NCBI RefSeq assembly: GCF_006345805.1
Contig: NC_043011.1
Coordinates: forward strand, 9,734,001 to 9,798,000
Direction: 5' to 3'
Length of the DNA stretch: 64,000 bases
DNA from: Octopus sinensis
Lineage: Eukaryota
Within the stretch, counting starts at the first letter, position 1, and each line of letters begins with the position of its first letter. The notes beneath the pieces were generated by a model. It did no database searches, was not told the origin of the DNA, and was given only the letters and a program-made list of their open reading frames with translations. Shown here piece after piece: positions 6,363 to 63,950 of the stretch. A program made the position numbers and the translations under genes.

Positions 6363-8743
6363 CTTAGAAAGGTTTTGGCCAGTATTGGCCCAGGCCATGT
6401 CTAACTTAATAGCACCACCTGGCGAAGTCTTTCAATTCAGGATTTGGGCACCAAGGCCCATTCGAGCAGAGAGTTATTGTTTGAGGAGACATATCCGGGT
6501 GTGGGTGGTTTGTCTGGAACTGTTTGAAGGAATTTGTCCAAAGACTTCTTGAATTTTGTGTGGTCAGTTTCTGTTTTGACGTGTCCTGGTGTGATGTTGA
6601 AGAGAGCGGGTCCAATTGAGGTGAAATAATTGTGCCGTATTGTTGTTATGAGATGCGATTTAGATTTTTGTTGTGGACGGATGGCACGGGGTCCAAGTCT
6701 TGGATGTATTTTGAAGGTGATACCAACATCATTTGGACAGTGCTGATGGAATATTTTCCACATCATACAGATAATGTAGCATTCACGGCGTCGTTGGAGT
6801 GAATACAGTTTCAGCTTTTCCAGTCGACCCCAGTAATCAAGGTCTGACATGCCATCTATCTTTTTCGTGATTGACCTTTGGGGAGCTTCAACTTTCATAA
6901 TATTCCGTTTCATGTAGGGAGACCACAATGGACAGCAGTATTCAAGGTGAGATCGGGCAAAAGTGGAGAAGAGAAGGAGAATGGTGTGGGAATCTCTCGA
7001 CTGGAAGGTTCTGAGAATCCAGGAGCACATTCTGCGGGCCATGTCAACTTTGCTGCTTATATGTGTAGCCCAGCTTATGTTGTTGTCCACAGTTACTCCC
7101 AAGTTTCTGATGTTGTTAAACGCCATGAGAGTTTCACCAGAAGGAAGGGAGTATGGGAGTTTCAGAGCGTCCTCCCTTCCAAAGTGGATCAATTCGAATT
7201 TGTCTTCGTTTAGCAACATGTTTTTTTTTCCGCCCATTGGACAACAGCCAGTAGGTCTGACTGAAGGTTTATCCGGTCATCCATGCCATTGATGACCTTC
7301 TGGAGCTTGGAATCATCAGCGAAGATTCTGATGTTACTGTATTTGATGATATCAGTAATATCATTAATGTAGATGATGAAGAGAAGTGGGCCCAACACAG
7401 AGCCTTGTGGGACACCACTGCTGACTTTGGCTGGGCTGGATTTGACTCCTTCGACTACAACATGTTGGGTTCTGTTAGACAGGAAGCACTTGATCCACTG
7501 CAGCAGCTTTCCAGTGACACCAATATTGACAGCTTTCTCAAAAGGATCTTATGATCAACCCTGTCAAAGGCCTTGCTGAAATCAAGGTAGATGACATCAG
7601 TGTTGGAACCCTCTCCCAAGGCTCTCAAAATGTCATCGAAGTGATGCAGTAGCTGCGTCAGGCAATCCCTTCCATTACGGAATCCATGCTGGCTGGAGTT
7701 CAGCATATTATGACTCTCAAGGAAGTGAGTCATACGCGATCTCACCACTCTCTCAAATACCTTAATGATATGAGAGGTGAGTGAGATTGGACGGTAATTC
7801 ACGGCAAGGGATTTGTTTCCTTTTTTGAAAACTGGGACAACAGACTGGGATAGAAGGTCTCCTTGTATATATCCAGCATCCAGTGAGTTCCGCCACAGAT
7901 TGGCTAGAGGGAGTGCAAGTTGGTGTTGACACATCTTCAAGACACAAGCAGGGAACCTATCGGGACCTACTGCTGAATTATGCTTCATTTCCTTTATTGC
8001 TGCTAAGACATCAGGAGCGCCAAAGGTTATGTCCGATAAAGTGTATTGGGGAGTAACATCAGTGATACAGCCCAGATCAGCCATATCAGGATTGCTGAAA
8101 ACAGAGCAGTATTGTTTCTGCAACATCTCTCCCATGGTTTTGGCATTGTCTTGAAGAGTACCATTTTCATCAATCAGAGGGCCAACAGTAGAACCAGTGA
8201 CTCTGTGTAATTTTGCAAATGAAAAGAACACTTTGGGATTGAGTTTGATCTTCTCAATGGCCCAGGACTCTTCAGCTCTTCTCTGACTATTGATGATAGA
8301 CATCATGTTGTTTTGGAGGTTATGTTTTTTAATCTCTAGTGACGTGATGGCAGTCAGGTTGGTGTGTTGCTGTTGACAGTATTTCAGCTTGTTGATTTTT
8401 TTGTTAATTCTTTTAATTTTCCTGATGAGAGATTTTCTATTTCTAGGGATTCTGCACTTAGATTTGTTTGCAGATCTTAATGGGGTGTGGTTTGCACATA
8501 TGTTCGTAATGGTGTCTACAAATGACTGCCAGGACTTTTTGATGTTAGTGGGTGTGTATGTGTGTGTGAAGGACCAATCGACTTGTGCAAGATCATTATT
8601 GATCGCTTCCCAGTTTGCATTGTGGAAATCCATAGTGTCAAATGGATGAACAGGAGGGATGACATTTGTTTTGCATTTTGGCCGGTGAAATCTCAGATCA
8701 CAGAGAACCATGTCATGGTCGGAGAGTAGAGTTTTCTCCACTG

Positions 8744-8745
<2 letters not shown>
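6362..8745 (-). mobile_element. 5'-truncated CR1/L2-group LINE with frameshifted reverse transcriptase
   Basis: ORFs 7455-8741, 7210-7398 and 6437-7237: NYRPISLTS, QHGFR, YLDFSKAFDRVDH, LGPLLFIIYIND, FADDSK, LEYCCPLWSP, LYSLQRRR. (TA)n on both sides. Confidence 0.92.
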
Positions 8746-8779
<34 letters not shown>

Positions 8780-8782
8780 TTA

Positions 8783-8813
<31 letters not shown>

Positions 8814-8822
8814 ATATATATA

Positions 8823-9215
8823 CTAGCAGTATCGCCCGGCGTTGCTCGGGTTTGTAAGGGAAATAATTATATAAGCATTTTTAGAGATGTAAAGTATAAT
8901 AGCCATCTCAATATGGCTAACCACAAAGGGGGAGGGGTGTTACTGTAGCTTTTTACGTTCTGAGATTTATAATAAATTTTAGAGAGTTACTTCCCTTATA
9001 AATGTCAAAAATGGATTAAAAATGGGAAAAATTGATGGTAAATTTTTTTTTAAATCGTAGACTCATCGTAGACGCGTGCTAATACCCAGACGGTCTCGAT
9101 ATGAATCACGACTATAAGATACCCGGTTTTGGTTAACTGCACCGCAAAATGTGGGAGTAGTTAGGAATCTAAATCGTAGGAGACAGACACACAACCTCAC
9201 TTTTATATATAAAAA
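8823..9215 (-). mobile_element. Non-autonomous Helitron (left arm of palindrome)
   Basis: Reverse complement of 9781-10173; CTAG terminus at 8823-8826 next to a GC-rich hairpin. Confidence 0.8.
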
Positions 9216-9456
9216 TTTCCTCTATTTACATAATATTGAGGTCTCTTTCTTTCTTTTGTTATCTTACTGTTTTTACCAATATACATATATATATATTATA
9301 TAAATATATATATAGTTACAGAGATGTACTTGCATAGCAAGTGACTTGATCTGAGATTGTGTGCTGGAACGAAAACAGTTGCAGCGTTGAAGGTGTTTAT
9401 AAGCCATTTAAGAAACACACAAAAACCGTTAGATTCACTTCAACATTTAAATTTAA

Positions 9457-9507
9457 TTTGCCAAAATATTTTCGTCGCTTTGAGACCGCGACCTGTTCAC
9501 TGACAAA
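9457..9507 (-). ncRNA. Predicted minimal type-I hammerhead ribozyme, G3-C8 variant
   Basis: Minus strand UUUGUCA-GUGAACA-G-GUCGC-ggucucaaa-GCGAC-GAA-AAUAUU-U-UGGCAAA: 7-bp stem I (one G-U), 5-bp stem II, palindromic stem III. Confidence 0.68.
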
Positions 9508-9780
9508 AATATCGTGCTAACAGGTCGCGGTCTCAAAGCGATGAAAATATTTTGACAAATTAAATTAAATGTTGAAGTGAATCTAATGGTTTTTGTGTGT
9601 TTCTTAAATGGCTTATAAACACCTTCAACGCTGCAACTGTTTTCGTTCCAGCACACGATCTCAGATCAAGTCACTTGCTATGCAAGTACATCTCTGTAAC
9701 TATATATATATGTATATTGGTAAAAACAGTAAGATAACAAAAGAAAGAAAGAGACCTCAATATTATGTAAATAGAGGAAA

Positions 9781-10173
9781 TCTTTATATATAAAAGTGAG
9801 GTTGTGTGTCTGTCTCCTACGATTTAGATTCCTACTACTCCCACATTTTGCGGTGCAGTTTACCAAAACCGGGTATCTTATAGTCGTGATTCATATCGAG
9901 ACAGTCTGGGTATTAGCGCGCGTCTACGATGAGTCTACGATTTAAAAAAAAATTTACCATCAATTTTTCCCATTTTTAATCCATTTTTGACATATATAAG
10001 GGAAGTAACTCTCTAAAATTTATTATTAAATCTCAGAACGTAAAAAGCTACAGTAACACCCCTCCCCCTTTGTGGTTGGCCATATTGAGATGGCTATTAT
10101 ACTTTACATCTCTAAAAATGCTTATATAATTATTTCCCTTACAAACCCGAGCAACGCCGGGCGATACTGCTAG
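9781..10173 (+). mobile_element. Non-autonomous Helitron (393 bp)
   Basis: A|TCTTTATATATAAAAG 5' end, subterminal hairpin CCCGAGCAACGCCGGG, CTAG|T 3' end, no target duplication. Confidence 0.85.
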
Positions 10174-23429: not shown

Positions 23430-23472
<43 letters not shown>

Positions 23473-23474
<2 letters not shown>

Positions 23475-23685
23475 ACAGCACGGACTTTGTCAGTGAACAG
23501 GTCGCGGATTTTAGCGGATTTTAGCGACGAAAATATTTTGACAAATTAAACTTAAATGTTGGAGTGAATCGAACGGCTTTTGTGTGTTTCTTAAATGGCT
23601 TATAAACACCTTCCACGCTGCAATTGTTTTCGTTTCAGCACACGATCTCAGATCAAATTACTTGCTATGCGAGTACATCTCCGTA

Positions 23686-23686
<1 letters not shown>
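23473..23686 (+). mobile_element. ~210-bp hammerhead-bearing element (Penelope pseudo-LTR or retrozyme-like)
   Basis: Colinear with 9519-9700 and with the reverse complement of 9313-9518; (TA)n on both sides. Confidence 0.7.
23486..23545 (+). ncRNA. Predicted minimal type-I hammerhead ribozyme, G3-C8 variant
   Basis: Stem I TTTGTCA 23486-92 / TGACAAA 23539-45; core GTGAACA 23493-99; stem II GTCGC 23501-05 / GCGAC 23524-28; GAAA 23529-32; predicted cut between 23538 and 23539. Confidence 0.7.
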
Positions 23687-23720
<34 letters not shown>

Positions 23721-25272: not shown

Positions 25273-27044
25273 ACTCTTTTACTCTTTTACTCTTTTACTT
25301 GTTTCAGCCATCCGGCTGAGGCCATGCTGGGGCACCGCCCTTGTTGCTACCCTCTCTAAGTCCAGTTTGCCGTGGCTGGCCACTGATCTAAGAGAGAGTT
25401 TGTAGCTGCTGCCCTTAGGTTACCTTCGTACCTCGCAGTGGGTTCATCTGGGATCCCGGAAAGCAGCTTGTCTAGATGTTTTTTGAAAATGTCCACATCC
25501 GCATCATGTAGATCTCTTAGTTTTCTTGGCAGTTTGTTGAACAGCTGAGGGCCCCTGAACCCCAGGCTATTACAGTATCTGCTCCTTACCCTGGATGTGG
25601 AAGACGGGACCTTTGGCACCACACAGTGACGTCCTGTACGGGGATTGGAACAGCTCTCAATTCCAAAATTTGGTGCTAGTCCCTCCAGGATTTTCCATAT
25701 GTATATCACTGCATATCTCTCTCGTCTTCGTTCCAAGGAGTACAAATTGAGTTCCCTAAGCCTCTCGCAATAGTTCTTTTCTTTCATGATGGAAATCCTC
25801 TTGGTGAAATGTCTTTGGATTGTCTCAAGCTCTGTGGTTAGTTTGACACTATGCGGTGACCACAGTTGGGAGCAGTAGTCCAGGCGGCTTAGGACAAATG
25901 TCCTCCATAGTGTCAACATGGTCTCGCAGTCTCTTGTCCGGAATGTCCTCAGGATCCAGCCAGTGAGTCGTCTGCACATTGTCGCACCCTTCGCGATGTG
26001 TGAAGAAAAAGATGCATCGTCACTCATGTCTATCCCCAGGTCCCGTATTGATTTCGATACTGGGATTTCAATCCCTCCTGGACCAGTATAGTTGTGTTGT
26101 AATGTATATGTGTTTACAGCTTGATATTGTAAGGCTTGAAATTTACCAGCATTAAATTGCATGTTGTTGTCTTCAGCCCATTTGTATATGGCATCCAGAT
26201 CTTGTTGTAAAAGGTCAGCATCAGCTGGGTTTTTGATTGCCTGTGTTACCTTTGTGTCATCAGCATAGCTAGTGAGGGATGTTGTTTGTGCTACCAAGGG
26301 CATGTCAGAGAGCGCCACCAAAAACAGCAAGGGTCCCAAGACTGTGCCCTGTGGCACCCCGCTTGCTATTGGTGTCTTTCCCGAGAGGGCTCCATTGGCT
26401 GCAACCATCTGGCTTCTGTCCTTCAGGAAGTCATGTATCCACTCACCTACTTTTCCTGTTATGCCGAGTCTGAGTAATTTGTGACATATCACTCCGTGGT
26501 CGACTTTGTCAAAGGCCTTCGCAAAGTCGAGATATACCACATCCACCTGTGAGCGATCCAGTAGTTGTTTCAGTACCCAGTCGTAGTGTTGTAACAGCTG
26601 CGTAAGGCAGCTTCTTCCTGGGCGAAAGCCATGCTGTGTGTCAGTGAGACGGTTAGTTTCTTCGAGGAACGTGATCAGTTTTTTTATGATGATTCGTTCC
26701 ATGACCTTACTTATGTGTGACGTCAGGGAGACTGGCCTGTAGTTTTTGGCCTCTGCTCTACTCCCTCCTTTGTGGATAGGGCATATGGTGCCTTCTTTTA
26801 GCGCCCTGGGCAGTTTACCGTTAGCCAAGGAACCACTGAAGAGCTCCTTCAGTGGTCCCGCTAGGGCATGCCTGCATGCTTTTAGGAGGACTGCTGGGAA
26901 TCCATCTGGTCCAGCAGCTGAGTTTATTCTCATTTTTCTATGGCAGATATTACATCCCTCTCTGTTATGTCTATGTGGTCGATGGTTGTTGTTGGTTTTG
27001 GAGTGTTGTGGCATCAAAGAAAACTTCTGGGTTTGTGATTTGCA
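25273..27044 (-). mobile_element. 5'-truncated CR1/L2-group LINE with long open RT frame
   Basis: ORF 25356-27017, short 3' UTR ending (GTAAAAGA)n, flanked by (TA)n. Confidence 0.95.
25356..27017 (-). CDS. Non-LTR reverse transcriptase, 5'-truncated (first ~25 aa probably out of frame)
   Basis: AAGPDG, NYRPVSLTS, QHGFRPGRSC, YLDFAKAFDKVDH, GVPQGTVLGPLLF, YADDTK, RDLGI, LDYCSQLWSP; no internal stops. Confidence 0.85.
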   Translation of the reverse strand: MMPQHSKTNNNHRPHRHNREGCNICHRKMRINSAAGPDGFPAVLLKACRHALAGPLKELFSGSLANGKLPRALKEGTICPIHKGGSRAEAKNYRPVSLTSHISKVMERIIIKKLITFLEETNRLTDTQHGFRPGRSCLTQLLQHYDWVLKQLLDRSQVDVVYLDFAKAFDKVDHGVICHKLLRLGITGKVGEWIHDFLKDRSQMVAANGALSGKTPIASGVPQGTVLGPLLFLVALSDMPLVAQTTSLTSYADDTKVTQAIKNPADADLLQQDLDAIYKWAEDNNMQFNAGKFQALQYQAVNTYTLQHNYTGPGGIEIPVSKSIRDLGIDMSDDASFSSHIAKGATMCRRLTGWILRTFRTRDCETMLTLWRTFVLSRLDYCSQLWSPHSVKLTTELETIQRHFTKRISIMKEKNYCERLRELNLYSLERRRERYAVIYIWKILEGLAPNFGIESCSNPRTGRHCVVPKVPSSTSRVRSRYCNSLGFRGPQLFNKLPRKLRDLHDADVDIFKKHLDKLLSGIPDEPTARYEGNLRAAATNSLLDQWPATANWT

Positions 27045-27050
27045 TATATA

Positions 27051-27098
<48 letters not shown>

Positions 27099-31832: not shown

Positions 31833-32268
31833 AAGAAAGAAGTGAAGCATAGATGATTGCCAGTAGTTGGTGAAGCAGAAGAAGGGATTCCATTCTGTCC
31901 CAAATAGTTCTCTGCTATCAATTCTGATAATCTGCACTCCATAATTTACTTTAAATAGAAATATTTTCTCTGACCAACTAAACTAAGACATTCTGGTGAA
32001 TTTGCCAGGAACTAATAACAGAGTCAACTCTGAAATTATGAAGGCATTGGTATTTCAAGAAGATTATAGTTTCCAATGAACTAAGAAATAAACTCAAACT
32101 TTCATGGCTTCTTCTGTCCCCAACTGAAATTACACCAAAATTTTTCCCCTAATAACAGTCTTTCTTTCTTTTTCTGTATTTCTCGAAACGGAAAATAAAT
32201 TTATATCATTATATGTTTTATTTTTTTTTGTTCGCAATTCTTTGGGTATCTTTATTTTTAGCTTATAA

Positions 32269-32360
32269 ATTTGTCCATGACTAAATCATGTCATTATACA
32301 TACATGATATATATATATATATCATGTATGTATAATGAGATGATTTAGTCATGGACAAAT
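32269..32360. repeat. 92-bp palindrome centred on (TA)n
   Basis: ATTTGTCCATGACTAAATCATGTCATTATACATACATGAT pairs with its reverse complement with one mismatch. Confidence 0.95.
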
Positions 32361-32365
32361 ATATA

Positions 32366-62105: not shown

Positions 62106-62339
62106 GGTTTCAAATTTTGGCACAATGCCAGCAAATGTGTGTGGAAGGTGGGACATAAGATCATTAGATCAATCCACAATATTCAACTGGCACTTATTTT
62201 ATCTACCTTAAAAAGGTGAAAGGCAAAGTTAACCTTGTAAGAAATTGAACTCGGAGCATAAGGATGGAGAAACTACTACTGAGCATTTTGTCTGGCATAA
62301 TAATGATTCAGCAGTTTCCTACTTCAATGATGATAATGA

Positions 62340-63950
62340 TGATTTGAGTGAACTACTACAGAATATAAATTTTGGGTATGATCTAGGAGAAGGTAAGGGA
62401 AAACTGAACCACTTGCTATTCGTGGACGACTTGAAGCTATTCACAAAAACTGAGGCAGAACTGGACAGCCTAGTCCAGTCTGTGCGGATTTTCTCCAATG
62501 ATATTAAGATGGAGTTTGGACTCTCGAAATGTGCTACGATGGTGATGAGACGAAGAAAGCTTGCCAAGACGGAAGGCATAGGGTTTCCAAGTGGTGAAAT
62601 GATGAAGGCAATTCAACCTCAATCTAGCAATATATACCTGGGAATACTTGAGGCAGATGGAATCAAACACCATGGCATGAAGGAAAACACAAAAAGAGAG
62701 TACCTGTGGCAGGTGAGAAAAATATTAGCTTCAAAGCTGACTGCCAGGAAAATAAATTCACCAATAAACTTGTGTGCAGTCACAGTAATTCGGTATGGTG
62801 CTGGAATTGTGAAGTGGACTGAGGAGGAGCTAAAGGGGATGAACAGGAAGTCTAGAAAGCTCCTAACGATGCATGAAGCCCATCATCCACATGCAGACAC
62901 TGATCGCTTATACACAAAGAGAGCAAAGGGATGAAGGGGACTGATAAGTGTGGAACTCGAGAGCTTAATGAGTTTCCTAACCTAAAGTAAGGAAACCTTG
63001 CTAGTGACAGGAACAAGGGAGTATTGCGAGTAGAGACAAAAAAGGGAAATCAAAGGAAAAAGTCTGAAAAGGACATGAAGAAGAATTACACAAGATGGGA
63101 CTACACAATCAATTCCATGTTGCCACAGCAGAAGTCGCTGGAAAGAATGGGTGAGATTGGCTGATGAAGGGAACTCTAAAAAAAGAGACTGAGAGCATTA
63201 TATTGGCAGCACAAGACCAAGCTTTGGCTACAAATGGGAGGGTCAACTTTAGGAATGAGCAAGAGTCTCTGCTGTGCTGCATCTGTAATAGAGTGGGTGA
63301 AACCATTGCCCATATCACAAACAAATGCCCTGGACTTGCCCCAAACAACTTGCCCCAAACAAGTTGTGGCAACATGACCAGGTAGTAAAATGTTACACTG
63401 AAAACTGTGCAAAAAGTGGGGGTTAGAGGGGGGCAACATGTGGTGTGAGCACAAACTGCGGAGAGTGACGGAGTTGGAGACTAGCAAAATCCTCAGGGAT
63501 TTCCCAATCCAAACAGATCAGGTGCTAAAGCATAACAGACCGGACCTTGTGGTGGTGGTGGACAAGGTGCACCACATATGCTATACAGTTGATGTTGCAT
63601 GTCCCTTTGACCCACAAATAGTTAAGAAGGAAGGTGAAAAGATAGATAGATACAACCCTCTTAGCCCGGCTATGGAAAACGAAAAAGGTAAAGATAGTGC
63701 CAATCATTGTTGGGTCCTTGGGAACAGTATCAGAAGGCATTAAGAGGAATATAAAGGAAATTGGAATAGAGCACCCCATAGAACTGTTACAAAAGGTCTG
63801 CCTCCTTGGCACAGCCAGAATAATCAGGAAAGTATTAGATAGCTGAAAAGACCGGATAGTATGGTACTGTAGGAAGTAAGCCTGCTATGCATGCAAAACC
63901 CCAGAAGCTCCAACAGAACCTGTGATAAAGAGAAATTAATTATAATAATA
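62340..63950 (+). mobile_element. 5'-truncated, decayed R4/Dong-like (RLE-type) non-LTR retrotransposon
   Basis: NHLLFVDDLKLF, MEFGLSKCA, KETESIILAAQDQALATN, CCICN..ETIAHI..C, RPDLVV..DVACPFD..KEGEKIDRY (restriction-like endonuclease); ends in (TAA)n. Confidence 0.88.

Follow-up and report, generated by a model that had tools for sequence, protein, structure and literature searches.

Penelope-like elements (PLEs) of metazoans carry minimal type I hammerhead ribozymes in their pseudo-LTRs (pLTRs), as described by Cervera and de la Pena (2014, PMC4209133). The activity of these motifs is described as low and dimer-dependent (PMC4209133) and the role of PLE hammerheads as unclear (PMC8557442). 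Their cores hold a C3-G8 pair, or U3-A8 in Schistosoma (PMC4209133), the latter being the form in which natural covariation at 3-8 has been published (PMC4209133; PMC3088659), so that the class is defined by the 3-8 pair and not by its letters. Here we report on a repeat found in a 64-kb stretch of Octopus sinensis DNA, hereafter the window, that is probably the solo pLTR of an Octopus PLE and bears a PLE-type minimal hammerhead with a reversed pair, G3-C8. With the published motifs (PMC4209133) it shares the type I topology, one additional base separating positions 9 and 10.1, the G10.1-C11.1 pair and a palindromic 15.2-16.2 segment, along with an occurrence mostly as single dispersed copies and opposite-strand pairs 100-700 bases apart; apart from the core, it differs in its stem II, which has 5 bp where the motifs of Schistosoma have 7-8 (PMC4209133).

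The protein of PAc, the Poseidon element of Anolis (Frangieh et al. 2024, PMC11167929), attaches to the RNA of the early ORF, makes nicks in AT-rich DNA and initiates reverse transcription within the RNA, close to where the ORF starts, and the genomic ends of PAc match these start sites. Cleavage by its hammerhead was reported to be protein-assisted, in vitro insertion did not need it and, in the accessible part of that report, RNA ends were not found at the cut site (PMC11167929). The octopus repeat likewise has its hammerhead near an ORF start, AT-rich targets and 3′ ends at discrete sites within the first codons. It departs from PAc in two respects: PAc has the usual C3-G8, its C3G/G8C form being a laboratory mutant with partial rescue, and the PAc start codon lies in stem II, whereas that of the octopus repeat stands 49 bases behind the motif (PMC11167929).

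The Penelope pLTRs of Adineta (Arkhipova et al. 2013, PMC3846280) resemble the octopus repeat in their length of about 200 bases including the first codons, in having a shorter pLTR, inverted, next to the 5′ end and in the capture of host DNA; they are low-copy, whereas the octopus family is very abundant. A pLTR with the ORF start and a neighbouring shorter inverted pLTR is a PLE architecture (PMC3846280; bioRxiv 2021.04.23.441226). Among the PLEs already described from Octopus, Hydra-clade and Naiad elements (Craig et al. 2021, PMC8557442) share the (TA)n targets, and Hydra hammerheads often have a U at the cleavage position, as here. Hydra-1_Obim differs in its CUGA-type core and a different, shorter N-terminus, and Naiad_Obim and Naiad_Ovul in their N-terminal endonuclease; identity with any of these three was ruled out, the ORF start and core of the octopus repeat being absent from the accessible part of the supplement (PMC8557442). 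Non-LTR retrozymes have in common with the repeat a short unit of non-coding length, a type I hammerhead and a relationship to PLEs; they form head-to-tail tandems, whereas octopus copies are solo or head-to-head and keep an ORF start (PMC7229834; bioRxiv 2026.07.22.740005).

The element class is well known, and the new part is a natural G3-C8 core shared by a whole family, for which priority is not assured. As an engineered variant, G3-C8 appears in the partial rescue of PAc (PMC11167929) and in a remark in PMC3884650. Within the literature searched, no G3-C8 core of natural origin came up; Przybilski and Hammann 2007 lay outside that search, as did the most extensive survey of variants among PLE hammerheads, Lunse et al. 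2017. The accessible text of the matches listed for octopus hammerheads held no description of the repeat family. A repeat annotation of O. vulgaris counts 30 recently active Penelope families, the word ribozyme being absent from its accessible text (PMC13282606), and libraries of this sort probably already list the octopus family as a repeat. Most hammerhead searches presuppose C3-G8; a family with a G3-C8 pair fixed over many thousands of contigs and several species labels would widen the natural core. "No hammerhead" calls made with a CUGANGA string on PLE clades (e.g. Naiads, according to the accessible part of PMC8557442) would need rechecking. We expect the advance to interest mainly specialists of ribozymes and transposons.

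Anatomy of the Motif

Copy 1 contains a minimal type I hammerhead at 23486..23545 (+), with a stem I of 7 bp, a stem II of 5 bp, a palindromic stem III and U17. The position check placed the stem I strands at 23486-23492 (5′) and 23539-23545 (3′), the core GUGAACA at 23493..23499 (Val-Asn-Arg in one frame) with G3 at 23493 and C8 at 23498, the extra G between A9 and G10.1 at 23500, G10.1 at 23501, G12 at 23529, A15.1 at 23532 and U17 at 23538, all on the plus strand. Stem II opens with G10.1-C11.1 and is closed in this copy by an 18-nt loop. The three-way junction is complete, with U4 G5 A6, A9, G12 A13 A14, A15.1-U16.1 and H17 all in place; the consensus identity C3/G8 is absent and positions 3 and 8 form a Watson-Crick pair of the opposite orientation. 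The extra base, G10.1-C11.1 and the palindromic stem III are traits of PLE minimal hammerheads. For the palindrome AATATT (23532..23537, +) to form a stem III, of 6 bp, two copies must pair with each other; its self-duplex was computed at -0.2 kcal/mol, which is marginal. The predicted cut falls at 23538/23539, the position also given in a preliminary description of this DNA.

In hammerhead catalysis G8 acts via its 2′-OH, so a G3-C8 pair would preserve the geometry. The preliminary description had taken the double swap to retain activity, which holds for partial but not for full activity, the swap in PAc restoring it only in part (PMC11167929).

A relaxed hammerhead descriptor, permitting any Watson-Crick pair at 3-8, returned exactly two sites on both strands of the 64 kb, 23486-23545 (+) and 9507-9457 (−). 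Sixty block shuffles gave a mean of 0.05 matches at these settings and none at the observed quality. Position check, descriptor and shuffles together bear out the type I G3-C8 hammerhead that had been proposed for copy 1. Folding z-scores of the whole strand are only -1.4 and -1.8, so the hammerhead signal lies in the arrangement and not in stability. The expectation that standard searches would miss the motif proved right: Rfam returned no match in the window at the gathering threshold, and at E ≤ 10 the 32 matches on 23440-23720 were mostly TA-repeat noise with no hammerhead family among them. Motif pattern scans found nothing in prokaryote genomes, and the four metagenome and five viral-contig loci that came up were rejected as chance, with only 17-25 bases matched and neither stem II nor stem III following.

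Loop II of copy 1 (23506-23525) carries a private 10-base tandem duplication that leaves stem II intact. The 5′ strand of stem I together with G3 (23484-23493, and 9509-9500 on the minus strand) is T-rich, ends in CAG and resembles a splice acceptor. An intron of the D. virilis Penelope terminates on the 5′ side of helix I (PMC4209133); splicing at the acceptor-like CAG, if real, would take out G3 and disable the motif.

Three Copies in the Window

Copy 1 (23476..23687, +) lies between (TA)n tracts and comprises a remnant of the 5′ leader common to the family (23476..23485, +), the hammerhead, a 49-nt spacer and 31 codons of an ORF. The 5′ boundary most often seen in the family is some 5 bases upstream of this remnant, and about 6 bases upstream of AGCACG, at which the preliminary description had let the copies begin. 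Copy 2 (9315..9518, −) has a complete hammerhead at 9507-9457 and its ORF start at 9407; as had been noted, its loop II is different, of 9 nt, and an A>G change in stem I gives a G-U pair. Both of these copies had been recognized; a third (9519..9700, +), 5′-truncated within the core so that it starts at A6, had been overlooked. It is inverted with respect to copy 2 and joined head-to-head to the 5′ end of the latter.

Copies 2 and 3 sit at the centre of a 1.35-kb palindrome (8820..10173), whose arms consist of the repeat, about 70 bases of flank, (TA)n and a Helitron-like element. The arms show 643 matches, 10 mismatches and 26 gap columns, and a difference at 10 of 653 paired columns makes an assembly fold-back unlikely. 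The non-autonomous element at 9781-10173 (+), mirrored at about 8820-9214 (−), we presume to be Helitron-like from its end signature (TC after A; a short hairpin and CTAG before T), and both palindrome arms end at its CTAG.

A Penelope-Like ORF Start

Reading from the ATG at 23595, the last 93 bases of the repeat (23595..23687, +) stay open and make up the first 31 codons of a Penelope-like ORF, beginning 49 bases behind the hammerhead. A 41-residue query from copy 3 returned two proteins among two candidates, P0001 (O. sinensis) and P0002 (O. bimaculoides), and both begin with the peptide of the repeat before continuing into the same protein sequence; the window peptide is identical to P0001 residues 1-31 at 28 of 31 positions. 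Residues 74-223 of P0001 are in turn 78-79% identical to P0004 and P0005 of O. vulgaris, and P0005 carries PKF, TDKSG, YGLRKDHK, RPVCG and SMDVVSLYPSI, whose order and spacing are those of the PLE RT alignment when compared by eye (PMC8557442 Figs S4, S7). P0001, P0002, P0004 and P0005 are automatic gene models; P0001 is chimeric, with a methyltransferase from about residue 243, and P0005 stops after RT motif A. Judged by sequence, the link to a PLE RT ORF is a chain from the window to P0001/P0002 and on to P0005, a 79%-identical relative.

Database searches with the protein pieces gave little: the PLE part of the fragments had no match in Pfam or PDB (for P0005, no Pfam RT match and no PDB match), the 31-residue peptide found none among 1.84 billion representatives, P0005 had 16 pattern matches and no confirmed one in viral contigs, its AlphaFold model has a mean pLDDT of 31, and P0001 residues 1-224 reached a score of only 0.79 in the ESM Atlas. 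The check for an adjacent Penelope RT and GIY-YIG domain that had been proposed was answered in part, the RT being reached through the protein fragments, while no full-length element came to light, and neither a GIY-YIG domain nor a longer ORF-bearing protein was found among 806 candidates.

Common non-CpG variants within the 31 codons, drawn from the family, are synonymous in four of six cases against 19% expected (P = 0.015, post hoc). The repeat very probably stems from a Penelope-like element. The ORF start and its Penelope-type RT relatives favour reading it as a solo pLTR of a PLE over a separate retrozyme, and a repeat of about 200 bases with hammerhead and first codons, alternative 3′ ends, (TA)n and a shorter inverted neighbour agrees with the description of a PLE pLTR. 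Solo pLTRs shed by coding masters are the simplest reading. The proposal of a non-autonomous retroelement family is right in that the motif is retroelement-borne; its "non-autonomous" wording is unsupported, since the last 93 bases start a Penelope-like ORF, four of the six variants there are synonymous, and ends and junctions are pLTR-like.

As to the clade, KDHK and an RW-type motif that P0005 shares by eye with Hydra elements (PMC8557442) recall that group, whereas the long N-terminus and PKF do not. P0001 joins 223 residues of PLE N-terminus to a PrmA-like methyltransferase segment, by exonisation or as an annotation artefact. P0004 resembles rotifer clusters in the ESM Atlas (scores 0.96-0.97) with DUF8422 in 16-41% of members, which is a lead only. 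An alternative frame from 23542 was ruled out as an ORF, being closed in copies 2 and 3.

Conservation across the Family

The stretch, whole or in part, is present in 20 of 24 listed sequencing runs, under five organism labels and in one weak metagenome row; protein matches place the family in Octopus. Four runs were mapped onto 9300-9545 with a likeness limit of 80% and a variant floor of 3%, using contig tables, and a C3-G8 sister family of less than 80% likeness would escape this mapping. The contigs fitted numbered 21,051 (X1), 12,343 (X3), 5,525 (X16) and 1,337 (X10), these being counts of contigs and not copy number.

No letter change reached 3% in any of the four runs at 9490-9508, which spans stem I, the whole core including G3 and C8, the extra G and the start of stem II (core places 9494-9500 included), nor at 9462-9473, which holds GAAA, stem III and U17. 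Stem II variants are CpG decay, and the sole common variant of stem I yields a G-U pair, at 11-36% of depth. Subfamily variants are carried by loop II and the 3′ body. Of the non-CpG sites, none of the 34 in core and stems varies, compared with 19 of the 141 elsewhere (P = 0.013, from contig tables in which depth is lower near the 5′ end); with the G-U wobble site 9461 counted, the figures become 1 of 35 against 19 of 141 (P = 0.06). Two-sided covariation was not seen across the family in the four runs. At the C11.1/G12 CpG (9473-9474), C11.1 reads U in 3-5% of depth, a C>T change that keeps a G-U pair, and changes of G12 stay below 3% in the four runs; this one-sidedness is weak, most CpGs decaying on both sides but 9489-9490 being one-sided as well.

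Inverted Junctions Near the Predicted Cut Site

In copy 2 coordinates the predicted cut corresponds to 9464/9463. Half of the listed contigs with a head-to-head junction (13 of 26) break at 9460-9462, within 3 bases of this cut, where a reference mismatch at 9461 pulls nearby ends to 9460 and related runs may contain the same loci. The excess would amount to 1.9- to 4.4-fold even if the 55 further joint rows, of 1-3 contigs each, lay elsewhere, and the short side measures at least 31 letters in just four of the six run-rows at 9460-9462. RT pausing or pairing of stem I could also pile junction ends there. The pile-up at the predicted cut hints at cleavage in vivo, and such a pile-up of truncated insertions, if present genome-wide, is a purely genomic test of in vivo cleavage.

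Two further observations concern the same region. Loose ends at 9460 and 9462 reveal a sister subfamily, diverged in the sequence just past stem I, and occur in DNA runs as well as in the RNA-labelled run. In X10, whose RNA label is a guess, the summed contig depth 5′ of the cut is about 0.3-0.4 of the DNA-run profile from the 9462-9470 bin; this drop comes from one study, contigs cannot show RNA ends or levels, and it was not counted as evidence.

Possible Activity of the Motif and the G3-C8 Pair

We consider it likely that the hammerhead is a working ribozyme. A competing explanation, which we regard as rather unlikely, is that of a PLE pLTR whose hammerhead is dead or near-dead, the sequence being retained for another reason (the end of an endonuclease frame, a promoter, a splice acceptor or a protein-binding site), or looking invariant only through masters that are few and recent. 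It draws on the frame that stays open through the motif and ends just after stem I, on laboratory G3-C8 mutants that regain activity in part only (PMC11167929), on the poor in vitro cleavage of PLE minimal hammerheads (PMC4209133) and on the conservation P of 0.06 with all sites counted. It sits badly with positions 3 and 8 having both changed, in the sole manner that preserves a Watson-Crick pair, and with the only common stem I variant, at 11-36% of depth, still pairing as G-U. In X1 that frame shows a stop-gain within loop II at 25%, yet GAAA, stem III and U17 behind it are unchanged, and inverted copies accumulate around the cut site.

The open frame offers a possible reason why the core should read GUGAACA. 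The frame runs through the entire motif with Ser-Val-Asn-Arg over the core and a stop just past stem I, and the leader common to the family adds sense codons only (by eye). PLE endonucleases end in (S/G/A/T)-Leu-Asn-x, e.g. SLNR in PoseidonFr (PMC8557442 Fig. S2). An Asn codon would demand a pyrimidine at position 8, so that C3 (Leu) would be left unpaired and G3 (Val) would restore the pair. We offer as a tentative proposal, on the whole doubtful, that the core of the hammerhead overlaps with the final conserved motif of the element's GIY-YIG endonuclease, that G3-C8 is a compromise between protein and ribozyme, and that the inverted copies at the cut site record cleavage by a PLE hammerhead in vivo. 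The stop-gain, four codons past the Asn and present at 25% in X1 and 18% in X3, counts against the overlap.

Ends of the Unit and Its Origin

The 5′ boundary of the family is sharp, with 283, 250, 193 and 24 contigs having 15 letters in common upstream of 9508 and none beyond. On the 3′ side, loose ends pile at least at 9316, 9321 and 9379 among the 24 rows listed (867 further), followed by AT-rich or TA sequence; these alternative 3′ ends are about 60 bases apart, longer than the published 30-40. Ten of the 15 joint rows listed (of 70) are opposite-strand joints in which the 5′ end meets a truncated copy of inverted orientation, an arrangement also present in the window.

Such ends would also suit a SINE- or retrozyme-like family that is non-autonomous yet independent, having once split off from a PLE pLTR and now spreading from short masters of its own, mobilized by PLE protein in trans. 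The sharp common 5′ boundary, with a loose-end consensus that shares nothing further upstream, speaks for such a family, as do its very high abundance against few ORF-bearing copies in protein databases and the palindrome at 8820-10173, which suggests that a solo copy with flank can be re-copied; retrozymes have moreover been argued to derive from PLEs (bioRxiv 2026.07.22.740005). Against it, subfamily variants within the 31 codons tend to be synonymous, an indication of coding masters. The tandem arrays that define retrozymes, which the preliminary description had suggested looking for, were not seen, head-to-tail tandems of whole units being absent from the window and from the 15 joint rows listed of 70, where contigs are short. 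We hold this origin to be unlikely.

A chance look-alike within a MITE or an unrelated repeat would fit the unremarkable folding z-scores and the lack of a hammerhead in Rfam, but is highly improbable in view of the absence of strict matches in 60 shuffles, the presence of all four published side traits of PLE minimal hammerheads and a position like that of PLE hammerheads, just upstream of a PLE ORF start, the ORF link having already largely refuted it.

A Possible Route of Formation

For the solo pLTR of a PLE, PAc offers a template from which the following steps are proposed. The RT-endonuclease of the element would bind its own RNA near the ORF start and nick AT-rich DNA, and reverse transcription would start inside the RNA at about codon 31, less often at about codon 10. 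From such a 5′-proximal start the enzyme would run off at the RNA 5′ end after about 205 bases and leave a solo pLTR, the fixed 5′ and discrete 3′ ends of the unit corresponding to run-off and to starts at codon 31 or 10. Two cDNAs at one target might give the head-to-head palindromes. The hammerhead would cleave after U17 at a slow rate, either dimerized via its palindromic stem III or assisted by the protein of the element, and RNAs cleaved there could serve as templates for those inverted copies whose start is the cut site. Alone, the ribozyme is predicted to be weak because its stem III needs two copies and is even then marginal at -0.2 kcal/mol, and this agrees with the low, dimer-dependent activity of PLE minimal hammerheads and the protein-assisted cleavage in PAc. 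The palindrome with its flank is most simply explained as a solo unit re-copied with downstream DNA, a DNA-level fold-back being the alternative.

Surroundings of the Repeat

The window is AT-rich, with many microsatellites and LINE-like ORFs. Fragments of LINE-type RT ORFs lie at 6437-8789 and 25356-27056 (−) and at 1293-2275 and 62233-62934 (+); by eye they are CR1/L2-like and RTE-like, and unrelated to the Penelope repeat. A separate, near-perfect palindrome of 102 bases (32264-32365) is built around a (TA)n tract.
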